A stretch of 62,038 nt of DNA, filler included, from Coriobacteriales bacterium (GCA_031263105.1; 6 parts of 6 records of this genome joined end to end with filler, not necessarily neighbours in it), one strand, 5' to 3'. Shown: positions 33,566 to 46,554, counted from the first letter of the whole stretch. Notes: generated by a model not told the origin, from the letters alone. Made by a program: numbers and translations.

Positions 33566-33600
33566 GCGTCTCACTTTGCGAATATCGCAGAATGAGACGC
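33566..33600. promoter_or_regulatory. Candidate upstream activator sequence (enhancer) for the sigma54 activator
   Basis: Inverted repeat GCGTCTCA-CTTTGCGA-ATA-TCGCAGAA-TGAGACGC about 85-120 bp upstream of the -24 element. Confidence 0.6.
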
Positions 33601-33684
33601 GACAGCTGTATCAGCATCCCCACACCACAAATCGATAACCGCAGTTCCACCGCCTGAGCGTCGTGCGCACAGCTCTGTGCAAAG

Positions 33685-33701
33685 TTGGCACGATTCTTGC
33701 A
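33685..33701 (+). promoter_or_regulatory. sigma54 (-24/-12) promoter
   Basis: TTGGCACGATTCTTGCA matches the TGGCACG-N4-TTGC(A/T) consensus with correct GG-N10-GC spacing. Confidence 0.88.
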
Positions 33702-33758
33702 TAAGGGGTTGTAGAGCGTACAAAGGCGCAGAGGCGACTTCAGGAAAGGAGGTTACCC

Positions 33759-33935
33759 ATGGCTGAGGAGCAGAAAGGCAAAACCCGACAGGTCAAGGCT
33801 GAAGAAGAGGAGAAGGACACCAAGGATCAGGCCCAGGCTCTGGACAAGGACACCGCATACGAAAAACAGGCACTCGATAAAACCGGTCGGGACTGGTCCA
33901 AGCGCAAGACGTTCAAGCCTAACGGCACGGTGTAA
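33759..33935 (+). CDS. Small charged hypothetical protein (58 aa), first gene of the sigma54 operon
   Basis: Strong RBS AGGAAAGGAGG; MAEEQKGKTRQVKAEEEEKDTKDQAQALDKDTAYEKQALDKTGRDWSKRKTFKPNGTV; absent from the supplied ORF track. Confidence 0.7.
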   Translation: MAEEQKGKTRQVKAEEEEKDTKDQAQALDKDTAYEKQALDKTGRDWSKRKTFKPNGTV

Positions 33936-33982
33936 GCAAAACGGGCGTCAGAGGCCCAAAGACCCGCGAAGGAGGTTGCGTA

Positions 33983-42858: not shown

Positions 42859-42898
42859 ACCCCGGGTCGGCGGCTATCGTTCGGCCATCTGGCGGGAG

Positions 42899-44692
42899 TC
42901 ATCGTCTCCTTAAGCGGCGGTAGAGCGTCGCCCTGCTGATGCCGAGGAGCTCGGCGGCCTGGGCGACGTTGCTGCCCGTCTGTGCCAGGGCCCGGTCGAT
43001 GGATGCGCGCTCCTGCTCTCTGAGCATGAGATGCCCGGAAGAGGAGGGCGGAGCGGCCTGTCGGCCGTCCGACCGGTCGGCGGTCAGCGACGCGACGCCT
43101 CTGCCGGAGGCAGGCACCCTGCGTCCCGCACCGCTGGCGCGAGGGTCGTCCCGGACAGAGGCAGGCAGGTCGTCAGGCTGTATCAGATCGCCGTGTGCCG
43201 CAAAATACGACGAGAACACCGCATTCTTGAGCTGGCGCACGTTGCCATGCCAGTGATAGGCCTCGATGCGCATCAGGGTCTCGGGTGCGAAGTTCCGCGG
43301 CCCGTTCGGGTCCTTGCGGCGGCACTCGTCGAGGTAGTAGCGGGCAAAGAAGGCCTTGTCCTCGGGGCGCTCCTCCAGGGTGGGCAGACGGATCGTCAGT
43401 ATCGAGAGACGGTAGAACAGGTCCTCGCGAAAGGTCTTCTCTCGCACCATCTCCAGAAGGTCGCGGTTGGTCGCCGCCATGACACGGAAGTCCACCTGCT
43501 TGTAGCTCTTGCCGCCCAGGCGCATGACGCGCTTGTCCTCAAGGACACGCAGCAGCGTCGCCTGCAGTTCGAGGGGCATGTCGCCGATCTCGTCGAGGAA
43601 CAAGGTGCCGCCCTGCGCCATCTCGATCTTTCCCGGCTTTCCCCCGCGCCTCGCACCGGTGAAGCTGCCGTCCTCGTACCCGAACAGCTCGCTCTCGATG
43701 AGGCGGGGCGGTATCGCCGCGCAGTTGATCGACATAAAGGGCCCGCTGGGGCGGCTGGCGTTATGGATGGCCTGGGCGAAGTACTCCTTGCCGGTGCCGC
43801 TCTCACCGACCAGAAGGATGCTCTCGCTGGTCGTTGCGTAGCGTTTCGCGAGCTCAACGGCCGACTTTATGGCCTCGCTGGGACCGAGTATCTCGTCGAA
43901 GGTCCTGTTCGCGACGTCCCCCGAAGCGCTGGGTCGCCGCTCCGCAGGTTCTGGCTTCGAGCGCTGGAGCTTCAGCAGCGAGACGCAGCGCTGGCATTTC
44001 ATGCGGTACTCGATCGCCGATGCCAAGGAGGCGATCAGTCCCAGCGTGTGCGACATCAGATTGTGATAGGTCTCCGACCAAGGGTTCTTCGGCAGAGGCT
44101 GCGTGAGCAGGAGAGAGGCGATCACCTCGTTGTGCTCGTCCATGATGGGGGCGGCGCATGCCGCAAGGTCATGCAGCACCCGACAGTAGTGCTCGGGCCC
44201 CATCAGGTGCACGGCGGCCTTATGCCGCATGCAGAGCGAGTGCGCGTTCGTGCCCATGGTCGATTCGTTGAAGAGGGACTTCTCAGCAATGTATTTATGC
44301 AGGTCGAGCTTGCCGATGCGGGTAAGGGTGGCGCCGCCCGTCTCGATCAGCTCGAATATGTAGTCGTTTTCCAGGTGCAGGTCCTCGATGATATGCAGCA
44401 GCGGCTTCGCGATACGGATAAGATCTGCGTTCTTCTCGGTGACACGCTGGTACTCCCGGTCGTTCAGCCTGATGCACAGCTGCGTCGCGTCGGGGTCGAT
44501 CGCCAGGCTCCGGCTGCGTTTCCAAGACTCAAGGATCTGGGGACTGAGCACATCGTCAGGGCATTCGGTTTCGTGCAGGAGAAATTCGTTCCGCGCCTTT
44601 TCGATTTGTTTCCAACGCAACCTGTCGAGCGAGAGATCCTGAATGAGGATATGCTTCTCGTGTTCCAGGGTCTCGAAGTCGATATAATCCAC
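42899..44692 (-). CDS. sigma54-dependent enhancer-binding activator (GAF-AAA-Fis HTH, AcoR-like)
   Basis: ILESWKRS GAF region, GESGTGKE, ESELFGY..GSFTGA, LFLDEIG, WHGNVRQL, AAELLGISRATLYRRL. Confidence 0.95.
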   Translation of the reverse strand: MDYIDFETLEHEKHILIQDLSLDRLRWKQIEKARNEFLLHETECPDDVLSPQILESWKRSRSLAIDPDATQLCIRLNDREYQRVTEKNADLIRIAKPLLHIIEDLHLENDYIFELIETGGATLTRIGKLDLHKYIAEKSLFNESTMGTNAHSLCMRHKAAVHLMGPEHYCRVLHDLAACAAPIMDEHNEVIASLLLTQPLPKNPWSETYHNLMSHTLGLIASLASAIEYRMKCQRCVSLLKLQRSKPEPAERRPSASGDVANRTFDEILGPSEAIKSAVELAKRYATTSESILLVGESGTGKEYFAQAIHNASRPSGPFMSINCAAIPPRLIESELFGYEDGSFTGARRGGKPGKIEMAQGGTLFLDEIGDMPLELQATLLRVLEDKRVMRLGGKSYKQVDFRVMAATNRDLLEMVREKTFREDLFYRLSILTIRLPTLEERPEDKAFFARYYLDECRRKDPNGPRNFAPETLMRIEAYHWHGNVRQLKNAVFSSYFAAHGDLIQPDDLPASVRDDPRASGAGRRVPASGRGVASLTADRSDGRQAAPPSSSGHLMLREQERASIDRALAQTGSNVAQAAELLGISRATLYRRLRRR

Positions 44693-44853
44693 AGAGACCA
44701 GCTCCTCTATTTACAAACGCGGATTTCGAGGATCGGAAAACCTCGTAAAATGGCCTATGAGCGATTGTAAATTCTACGTCTGAACAGTAGAATTGTACCA
44801 TAATCCAGACTCGTTGACAGCGTGCGCGCACAGCACTATCAGGGGCACCGCAC

Positions 44854-45124
44854 GGGAACGTTACTGGGAACGTTACTGGGAACGTTACTGTTCTCACCCC
44901 ACTGTCATCCCGAGCCTGTCGAGGGATCCTCGGCCGCGCAAGCGGTCGACCGCAGGCCGAAGGACCCACTGACCTGCCGTTGGACACTGCGTGTCCAAAG
45001 ATTCCTCGGCGGAGCTCGGAATGACAGTGGTGCGAACAGTAACACACGCCCACTGTCATTCCGAGCGCAGCGAAGCGGAGCCGAGGAATCTTCGGTTGCG
45101 AAGCAGTGGGGTGTGAGCTGTAAC
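44854..45124. repeat. Tandem GGGAACGTTACT x3 plus two TGTCAT-family elements
   Basis: Elements at 44884-45043 and 45044-45124, ending GGGGTGTGAGCTGTAAC. Confidence 0.85.
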
Positions 45125-45147
45125 TAGGCAGGAGCAGGGGGTATTCG

Positions 45148-46554
45148 TTGGCCGACGCGCATATGGGCATGACACAGGAGCCGCAGGTGCGGCTGCGCCT
45201 CTCGGTGGAGGCACGGCAGGGGATCGGCCTGCTTGCGCTCTCCGTCCTTGAGCTCAACGAGCATATCGCCAACAGCCTTGAGGAGAACGTGTTCTTAGAA
45301 CACGACGAGCGTGACCTGCGCAGGCATCCTCTTGACCCCGATGCCATCGAGATGAACGTCAGGACCGAGAGCCTGCTCGCCCGCATGCAGAGAAGCAATG
45401 TCGGCATCGCGGGAGGGAGCTACGGGGAGATACGCCGCGAGTTCCCCTTCGAGAAGTACATGACCGAACAGCAGACGCTCGAGGCGCATCTGGGCGGGCT
45501 GCTTGCGCAGGAGCTGCGCAACGGCCTGGACAGGACGATAGGGGAGTACCTCATCGGGAACATCGATGCGGCAGGCTATCTGCGCATCGGACTCGATGAG
45601 GTGGCGGCGCAGTTCGAGGTCTCAGGCGGACGTGTCGAGCAGGTGCTTCATGCCCTACAGGCCTGTGCGCCTGCGGGGATCGGGGCGCGCAGCGTCGAGG
45701 AGTGCCTGCTTCTGCAGCTTGAGGCCGCAGGGCAGGCGGATGCCACGACGCGCCGCATCGTTCAGGAACATCTGCAGGATCTCGCCGCTGGTCACGTCGC
45801 GCAGGTGGCGGCGAGGCTCGGGGTCGGGCCCGGGGACGTCCAACGGGCCTTCGACCTGATCCGCGCCTGCGACCCGCATCCGGGACTGCAGTTCTCCGAC
45901 GGGCACCGTCAGGCGCTCTGCCCCGAGGCCTTTGTCGAGCGCGACGGAGCGGCCTGGGTCGTGCGCATGCAGGACTTCGACCTGCCGCAGCTCAGGCTCA
46001 GCGAGGAATACCTCAAGATGATCGACGACCCGCACATCGACCCCCAGGCCGCGCACTATCTTGCGCGACAGCTGCGTGCCGCCCAAGGGCTGATGACGGG
46101 CATCGAGCAACGCAAATCGACCATCTTTCAGGTCGCGGCCTGTATCGTCGCGCGACAGCAGGAGTTCTTCGACAAGGGGATCGAGCACCTCCAGCCCCTG
46201 ACCATGGCCCAGGTGGCCGATCAGGCAGGGGTCTCGGAATCGACCGTCAGCCGTGTGGTCAACGGGAAGTACATCCAGACGCCTCATGGCACTTTGGAAA
46301 TGCGCTCGTTCTTCCACTCGGGGGTCGGCTCGACAGGGCGCGGCCCGACGGCGAGCGAGGACGTCTCGTCCCAGGCGGTCAAGCACCGCATCCAGACCCT
46401 GATAGCCGAGGAGGACCCGACGCACCCTTTGAGCGACCAGGCGCTACAGGACGCCCTCGCCGCCTGCGGTATCGAACTCTCCCGTCGCACGGTCAACAAG
46501 TATCGCAAAAGCCTGAACATCCCCTCCCGCGCCCAGCGCAGACGCGGCGGCTAG
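45148..46554 (+). CDS. rpoN: RNA polymerase sigma-54 factor
   Basis: Region I (LL.LS..EL...I...LEENVFLE), PAGIGARSVEECLLLQL, HTH GVSESTVSRVVNGKY, RpoN box SRRTVNKYR; start may be 45163 or 45170. Confidence 0.95.
   Translation: MADAHMGMTQEPQVRLRLSVEARQGIGLLALSVLELNEHIANSLEENVFLEHDERDLRRHPLDPDAIEMNVRTESLLARMQRSNVGIAGGSYGEIRREFPFEKYMTEQQTLEAHLGGLLAQELRNGLDRTIGEYLIGNIDAAGYLRIGLDEVAAQFEVSGGRVEQVLHALQACAPAGIGARSVEECLLLQLEAAGQADATTRRIVQEHLQDLAAGHVAQVAARLGVGPGDVQRAFDLIRACDPHPGLQFSDGHRQALCPEAFVERDGAAWVVRMQDFDLPQLRLSEEYLKMIDDPHIDPQAAHYLARQLRAAQGLMTGIEQRKSTIFQVAACIVARQQEFFDKGIEHLQPLTMAQVADQAGVSESTVSRVVNGKYIQTPHGTLEMRSFFHSGVGSTGRGPTASEDVSSQAVKHRIQTLIAEEDPTHPLSDQALQDALAACGIELSRRTVNKYRKSLNIPSRAQRRRGG

Follow-up and report, generated by a model that had tools for sequence, protein, structure and literature searches.

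A sigma-54 module on one contig

We analyzed 62,038 nucleotides (filler included) of Coriobacteriales bacterium GCA_031263105.1, called here the window, in which seven contigs are joined with spacers. Contig C85 (window 33357-53891) wholly contains a sigma-54 module: rpoN, a divergently transcribed activator gene, a -24/-12 promoter and a predicted enhancer ahead of eight co-directional genes around a molybdenum (Mo) enzyme. A first-pass annotation of the window had claimed these parts together, and all of them were confirmed on C85. The features are listed below (aa, amino acids; MFS, major facilitator superfamily).

33569..33597, no strand assigned: predicted enhancer (upstream activating sequence, UAS) of two tandem TCTCA-N3-TGAGA sites, one mismatch each, from motif conservation
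33685..33702, + strand: sigma-54 -24/-12 promoter TTGGCACGATTCTTGCAT (GG 33687-88, GC 33699-700), the best site of the genome
33759..33935, + strand: charged protein of 58 aa with a conserved A-x6-D-x2-GRDW-x-K motif, first gene of the cluster downstream of the promoter, candidate small partner of the Mo enzyme
33983..36316, + strand: bis-molybdopterin guanine dinucleotide (bis-MGD) Mo/W enzyme, 777 aa, no signal peptide seen; Gordonibacter-type catechol dehydroxylase family, cluster Unk-71
36318..36656, + strand: 4Fe-4S small subunit, 112 aa
36739..37086, + strand: zinc-ribbon protein 1, 115 aa, Pro-rich tail
37099..37440, + strand: Cys-rich double-zinc-ribbon-like protein 2, 113 aa
37660..38907, + strand: MFS transporter 1 (MFS1)
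39238..40902, + strand: Amidohydrolase_3 family protein, part of an optional sub-cassette
41350..42540, + strand: MFS transporter 2, core part of the unit
42899..44692, - strand: sigma-54 activator with AcoR/DhaR-type GAF, AAA+ (GSFTGA) and Fis helix-turn-helix (HTH) regions, from domain and profile searches
45148..46554, + strand: rpoN (sigma-54), 468 aa, the single copy found in the genome

The host genome bin is 2.9 Mb with 64.5% GC. The host is an actinobacterium, as had been supposed: it shares its family with a Coriobacteriales metagenome-assembled genome (MAG) and its order with Gordonibacter, and the RpoB tree, which places the host family as sister to the Eggerthellaceae sampled, agrees. 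Contig C85 ranks 12 of 102 in tetranucleotide closeness to the bin centre and carries, inside the module, a palindromic repeat found genome-wide; it is therefore not a stray contig, and bin contamination as its source is ruled out.

The RpoN protein is complete, with AID, core-binding (CBD) and DNA-binding (DBD) domains, a TIGR02395 score of 377.7 (cut-off 277.35) and the RpoN box SRRTVNKYR. The activator gene, convergent with the operon end, encodes Sigma54_activat, AAA lid and Fis HTH_8 domains. Its GAF domain was not called by Pfam on the protein searched alone; it was matched in 8 of 27 aligned relatives, and a profile of these relatives matches the DhaR sensor domain (PDB 4LRX, E 3.8e-17). 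The activator lacks about 130 residues that most orthologs have between GAF and AAA, and its single-sequence fold reached a predicted local distance difference test score (pLDDT) of 37. PF00158 has five matches in the genome, two of them activator-like, and only the one on C85 has an intact loop (GSFTGA). The other activator-like gene, on contig C120 (L040:13827-15851), was rejected as a second sigma-54 activator: its loop reads GSPAAS where GAFTGA is expected, and the 16 kb around it contain no -24/-12 site. It adjoins a cluster of CoA-transferase, acyl-CoA dehydrogenase, electron-transfer flavoprotein (ETF) and transporter genes, as named from their translations.

Promoter and enhancer

The promoter had been claimed at 33685-33701 and was confirmed at 33685-33702. 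Scored with a matrix trained on 32 sites from other genomes, TTGGCACGATTCTTGCAT reaches 30.5 bits; the next best genome site has 18.0, and no other site in the genome attains the training minimum of 20.8 bits. The genome-wide count proposed earlier gave one rpoN, one activator with an intact loop and one high-scoring promoter. Two candidate additional targets were rejected: the Mo gene on contig C18, for which a one-mismatch site lies in upstream coding sequence (our own reading) and is absent from the matrix list, and a strict regular-expression match on C37 that is not on that list either.

The candidate enhancer lies about 90-120 bp upstream of the -24 element. The single palindromic UAS proposed at 33566-33600 is present as a candidate, but resolves into two tandem 13-bp sites (33569-33581 and 33585-33597). 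Of the 26 single sites in the genome, no others form a tandem pair, and none but the C85 enhancer is paired with a promoter.

Consensus matches to housekeeping promoters were detected between rpoN and the activator gene:

+44765-44793, rpoN-facing, and -44820-44792, activator-facing: overlapping divergent sigma-70-like promoter matches, consensus matches only

The four such matches in the region compare weakly with shuffled sequences (mean 1.9, standard deviation 1.5).

Conservation, co-occurrence and loss

Ortholog loci were counted in a scan of GTDB genomes, in which 201 stretches were confirmed and the best 72 loci returned. Among these we detected 32 actinobacterial enzyme orthologs with 82-90% identity (Gordonibacter, Raoultibacter, Adlercreutzia faecimuris, Ellagibacter and MAGs) and three Firmicute copies at 78%. 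Of the 32 actinobacterial loci, 21 have rpoN no more than 10 kb from the enzyme, in several gene orders. For the remaining 11 loci ten genomes were searched, one 3-kb contig being left out; rpoN was found elsewhere in seven and not found in three.

A -24/-12 promoter stands 297-371 bp before the enzyme in all 26 rpoN-positive loci and in none of the three rpoN-negative ones (chance 0.6%), and the enhancer motif with at most one mismatch lies upstream of the promoter in 23 of the 26 (chance 0.3% per random window); three loci with too short or gapped upstream DNA were dropped from these counts. Among paralogous enzymes, 12 of 14 Bacillota loci carry a -24/-12 site, against 0 of 21 loci elsewhere. 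For the paralogs of two same-genus genomes the count is 0 of 26 parsed, three further loci not parsing. One lineage (L099, L101, L118, L119, L248) has a second -24/-12 site before the activator gene, suggesting positive autoregulation, and the MFS pair of Gordonibacter and Raoultibacter has its own promoter and enhancer.

In 261 Eggerthellaceae genomes, any RpoN was detected in 54, a module-type RpoN in 29 (by an E-value cut chosen after seeing the list), an enzyme ortholog in 26 (nine candidates per genome scored) and both in 24. The five genomes with module rpoN alone comprise two with the enzyme cut by a contig end, two with rpoN near a contig end and one true relic, G210 (L044; 99% complete), which keeps rpoN, enhancer and promoter and in which neither activator nor enzyme ortholog was found. 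The enzyme-only genomes G819 (98% complete) and G935 (92%), in which no rpoN, activator, promoter or enhancer was found, nest with their enzymes among rpoN-positive copies, which indicates loss rather than original absence. Genome G401 (L120/L261; 78% complete) has the activator loop GTFTGG and perfect enhancer sites upstream of both enzyme and activator genes; it has lost the -24/-12 site, and no rpoN was detected, suggesting a possible switch to a sigma-70-type activator. Taken together, the unit is real, conserved and under selection, and sigma-54 control of the operon is strongly implied by co-conservation and co-loss of its parts.

Of 34 genomes in the host family, four have the enzyme and three have rpoN. 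The statement that sigma-54 is generally absent from Actinomycetota holds phylum-wide (rpoN in 10 of 301 genomes) but not within the class Coriobacteriia (155 of 401), where other families have rpoN almost universally (f8 42/44, f11 14/14, f14 14/14, f15 19/20).

Origin of the module

The enzyme and activator trees link the actinobacterial clade to Syntrophomonas and Gracilibacteraceae, with support of 99-100 in the Shimodaira-Hasegawa-like approximate likelihood-ratio test (SH-aLRT). In the enzyme tree, rooted with an imperfect outgroup, Syntrophomonas copies are the sister group of the actinobacterial clade (support 100), which falls within a wider set of Syntrophomonas and Sporomusa proteins; the activator clade (100) is sister to activators of Syntrophomonas, Gracilibacteraceae and other Bacillota (99). 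One Syntrophomonas copy combines operon and promoter with an enhancer site that matches the window's second site exactly, and in its genome the rpoN closest to the module rpoN adjoins whiA. For RpoN, an LG+G4 tree of 90 rows separates the module type (100) from deep-Coriobacteriia and Eggerthella-type RpoN and gives Dehalobacter plus Gracilibacteraceae as its sister (99), followed by Syntrophomonas (98). The nearest named matches outside the clade come from Dehalobacter, Gracilibacteraceae and Syntrophomonadaceae, and the first two also have the SRRTVNKYR box. No plasmid record above 60% identity to the module RpoN was found among 370 matches.

Import of the enzyme operon, activator and rpoN from Firmicutes is our best reading of these trees, with rpoN the least certain part. 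We estimate at about 0.72 the probability that the module is a dedicated, old, Firmicute-derived sigma-54 circuit for one anaerobic-respiration operon, now inherited mostly vertically.

Several points weigh against this reading. The genome is 86% complete with 6.5% contamination, so that further sigma-54 targets may be missing. Repeat-bearing gaps of 220-450 bp separate the distal operon genes, which makes a single transcript uncertain. The genomes are related, so the co-occurrence counts overstate independence, and one of the three rpoN-negative genomes is only 78% complete (G401). All trees were quick ones with no bootstrap; a C20 mixture model (43 rows) drops the link of RpoN to Firmicutes below support 80, and the approximately unbiased (AU) test (27 rows) keeps one clade of all actinobacterial RpoN rows (p 0.136). 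The last two results, together with the near-universal rpoN of other families in the class, would fit an rpoN that is ancestral and vertical in Coriobacteriia and has shrunk to one adjoining target, only the operon and the activator being imported. We regard this as improbable, since the LG+G4 trees nest the module RpoN in Firmicutes at 98-99, the AU test rejects its grouping with deep-Coriobacteriia RpoN (p 0.013), and the VNKYR box and best outside matches point to the same Firmicute groups.

The Dehalobacter-type sister RpoN lies off the usual whiA locus (L184, L325, L329-L334, L405). G437 carries this type alongside a whiA-linked copy, and in L331 a sigma-54 promoter and a Mo enzyme lie downstream.

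Age, mobility and divergence of RpoN

The scattered distribution (26 of 261 and 4 of 34 genomes) could suggest an actively mobile cassette spreading among gut Coriobacteriales, as could the enzyme's conservation above that of RpoB (81-97% versus 72-90% identity), an Eggerthellaceae copy (L124) outside its own family's clade and the disagreement of RpoN and enzyme trees on the Adlercreutzia group. We consider this very improbable. Across nine genomes, divergence at four-fold degenerate sites is as high in the module genes as in rpoB. In the host, the module's GC at third codon positions (0.81-0.89) is close to the genome median of 0.88. No integrase or transposase was detected among 40 flanking open reading frames (ORFs) scanned at eight loci, one flank with LRR and DUF2201 genes is common to several genera, and partial losses are visible. 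Mobility genes, foreign composition or near-identical copies in distant hosts, as expected of a mobile element, were not seen. What these data describe is, on the evidence of sequence divergence, a single ancient transfer, perhaps accompanied by older exchanges inside the order, followed by piecemeal decay without current mobility. The proposal of a portable unit bringing its own sigma-54 thus survives as a conserved, apparently Firmicute-imported unit with one apparent target, but not as a recently mobile one. In many Eggerthellaceae a block of LRR_5, DUF2201, 500-aa, 279-aa and methyltransferase genes flanks or interrupts the unit (L098-L100, L110, L115, L121, L122); it is not on the window's contig and could be an insertion site or more cargo.

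RpoN itself falls to 30-50% identity between most pairs in the clade, and in two genomes it is 49% identical while RpoB is 92% and the enzyme 97%. This fast divergence, the lineage-specific -12 variants TTTC and ATGC of the promoter and the two RpoN types in some genomes of the same order would agree with co-evolution of RpoN and activator into an insulated private pair with no cross-talk, as in Cereibacter sphaeroides. We doubt that such insulation exists here, since other Coriobacteriia RpoN types are also fast-evolving (52-70%) and genomes with a TTTC enzyme promoter have a canonical TTGC site at a second module promoter (L248). The earlier suggestion that GSFTGA and SRRTVNKYR form a co-adapted private pair is not supported. 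The RpoN box reads -24 DNA and the GAFTGA loop contacts region I, so the two motifs are not partners of each other. Both are inherited Firmicute variants: GSFTGA is present in the Firmicute sister activators and alternates inside the clade with GAFTGA, which many module activators have. GSFTGA is a recognised functional loop variant in the accessible parts of two reports (PMC6615313; PMC3162934).

The Mo enzyme and the other operon genes

Catechol dehydroxylation is our best guess for the reaction of the enzyme. The protein shares the PGCH-x2-C and C-x2-PR motifs with Dodh-like and Cldh-like proteins at 52-54% identity, and has the hallmarks of the Gordonibacter type: a short bis-MGD subunit, no twin-arginine (TAT) leader as read from the sequence, an adjacent 4Fe-4S subunit and MFS neighbours. 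Two published catechol-dehydroxylase family tables include the Gordonibacter urolithinfaciens ortholog (A0A423UJ81) as cluster 71 (unk-71), and a published figure counts this cluster among those whose transcript prevalence exceeds 0.1 in a human cohort.

An enzyme of another kind under the regulation described here, for instance a hydratase akin to acetylene hydratase or a reductase acting on a different substrate, seems to us unlikely. In its favour, acetylene hydratase is the best solved relative (E 1.5e-92), no labelled member above 54% identity has a tested activity, and the locus regulator is an AcoR/DhaR-like sigma-54 activator, not the neighbouring 12-transmembrane (12-TM) LuxR protein typical of Gordonibacter-type loci. 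Against this stand the published family listings and the Gordonibacter-type gene context. The catalytic Asp of acetylene hydratase sits in its CDINC motif; this aligns to CHNGC in our enzyme, and with the Asp replaced acetylene hydratase itself was rejected.

The 58-aa protein is conserved with a ribosome-binding site in the Coriobacteriales orthologs examined. It was not found before the Syntrophomonas enzyme copies, no fusion to a longer Mo enzyme was seen among the proteins retrieved, and an atlas search gave only unnamed matches at 0.81 or below. Complex prediction with the enzyme scored 0.57 versus 0.00 for the best control, with a partner pLDDT of about 50 and runs sharing at least 58% of contacts; for calibration, scores of 0.60 or below were given by only 18 of 157 solved complexes and by both of the mismatched pairs, out of 215, that passed. 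A role as small partner of the Mo enzyme is weakly supported by this model and is a lead only.

The amidohydrolase is present in 3 of 32 ortholog loci (76-81% identity), and a close form of MFS1 (70%) travels with it (L106, L112, L125). The two are optional and suggest an amide-conjugated source of the substrate.

In two libraries of one study, RNA contigs cover the MFS, Mo and Fe genes at a Gordonibacter locus, with no contig on rpoN; being assembled, they cannot show start, strand or level and were not used as evidence. Elsewhere in the window, contig C82 carries another Mo oxidoreductase and a flavocytochrome-like protein (12155-14626 and 15362-17068), and the genome holds 49 Molybdopterin-family matches. 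Another contig (55288-58200) encodes a subtilisin-like protease with Listeria-Bacteroides repeats.

The repeat inside the module is located between activator and rpoN:

44890..45110, no strand assigned: copy of the genome-wide palindromic repeat, a host element outside the conserved unit

Further copies are at window 33100-33256, 33357-33470 and in other intergenic gaps. The repeat has 798 blastn matches on 206 of 250 contigs, folds strongly (z -6.8) and resembles a miniature inverted-repeat transposable element (MITE) or a repetitive extragenic palindromic (REP) type element.

Proposed mechanism

Opening of sigma-54 promoters by an enhancer-bound, ATP-hydrolysing activator is an established mechanism, and its application to the module would be as follows. 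The housekeeping sigma factor probably transcribes rpoN and the activator gene. The sigma-54 holoenzyme would wait in the closed state on the -24/-12 site until the GAF domain senses an intracellular small molecule linked to the pathway, the effector being a guess; the activator, bound to the tandem TCTCA-N3-TGAGA sites, would then hydrolyse ATP and open the promoter. The product would be a cytoplasmic two-subunit Mo enzyme, most likely removing the para-hydroxyl of a small catechol as an electron sink, with the MFS pair for import and export and the small accessory proteins assisting; the amidohydrolase probably frees the catechol from an amide conjugate.

Operon, activator and enhancer probably came from a Syntrophomonas/Dehalobacter-like Firmicute, in which such operons use the sigma-54 of the host, and the actinobacterial recipient would have kept an rpoN of the same donor group beside the operon. 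Mostly vertical inheritance, rearrangement and part-by-part loss would have followed this old transfer.

The module means that an actinobacterium of 64% GC keeps a complete sigma-54 circuit under visible selection, and it illustrates a way for an operon dependent on foreign transcription machinery to cross phyla, the sigma factor travelling along. Intact, relic and rewired versions of the unit together form a natural series. Enhancer and promoter are a ready reporter for finding the inducer of an orphan gut enzyme, and orthologs in Gordonibacter urolithinfaciens, an organism with expression and deletion tools, make the circuit directly testable.

Other sigma-54 units in Coriobacteriia

A second Eggerthellaceae cassette (L046-L051, L196; G118, G246, G382, G084, G124, G385) has an rpoN about 30% identical with the box KRRTVAKYR, neighbouring genes for a GAFTGA activator, CoA-transferase, old-yellow-enzyme, enoyl-CoA hydratase, ligase, acyl-CoA dehydrogenase and ETF, and two to three -24/-12 sites. 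Eggerthella lenta and E. sinensis have named proteins of this RpoN type. Deep Coriobacteriia of other orders (L055-L060) share a conserved rpoN, a kinase, an NtrC-like regulator and a -24/-12 site, followed in the two loci scanned by heavy-metal-binding and DsbD genes. More pairs of rpoN and activator adjoin catabolic genes in L191, L192 and L193, including a second copy in G246, and in the actinobacterial family f56 such a pair precedes acyl-CoA dehydrogenase and aldehyde ferredoxin oxidoreductase genes.

A broader and more tentative reading, which we hold as a minority view, is that sigma-54 is cargo: several unrelated rpoN lineages, among them those of the dehydroxylase unit and of the Eggerthella CoA-transferase/reductase unit, would have arrived with their own activator and catabolic operon in hosts with no other sigma-54 biology, each as an insulated one-pathway circuit. 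During decay of such a circuit the operon could later be rewired to the housekeeping sigma factor.

Comparison with known systems

The accessible text of PMC12316311 describes the phylum as effectively without functional RpoN, its supplement lists Eggerthella guodeyinii with two complete RpoN copies, and databases already name Coriobacteriia RpoN proteins; the mere presence of rpoN is thus on record. We found no literature description of a sigma-54 regulon in Coriobacteriia, of the unit or of its enhancer, which subscription papers or unseen supplements could hold.

The other systems compared here are taken from the accessible portions of the cited reports. The module enzyme resembles Dodh, Cldh, Gp Hcdh and Eadh1-3 in being a cytoplasmic bis-MGD protein of about 780 aa with a small 4Fe-4S subunit and MFS neighbours (PMC7028382, PMC11585353, PMC11887054, PMC12771579). 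Characterised Gordonibacter-type members are run by 12-TM LuxR regulators (PMC9734109). The module enzyme forms the separate cluster Unk-71, is apparently sigma-54-controlled and has, compared with characterised members, the extra 58-aa and two zinc-ribbon proteins.

Clostridiales regulons are similar to the module in having GAF/PAS activators beside a single target operon, with multiple UAS 100-250 bp upstream, and in tolerating GSFTGA; unlike the module, they use the core rpoN of the host (PMC6615313). In Ralstonia solanacearum, rpoN2 (Rsp1671) is likewise clustered with GSFTGA activators (Rsp1667/Rsp1668), but it is a second copy beside the core RpoN1, for which that work found no metabolic role, and the accessible text shows no linked enzyme operon (PMC4676750). 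The pairs RpoN1-NifA, RpoN2-FleQ and RpoN3-AprX of Cereibacter (Rhodobacter) sphaeroides also provide one sigma-54 copy per activator with a small gene set, as paralogs within a proteobacterium that uses sigma-54 (PMC11999139). The module, unlike these, is the sole sigma-54 found in its genome, is actinobacterial and linked to both activator and target with one promoter, and was apparently imported together with them. Dedicated pairs of RpoN and activator are therefore known, and the one described here appears to be a minimal case, co-imported across phyla into a lineage thought to lack sigma-54.

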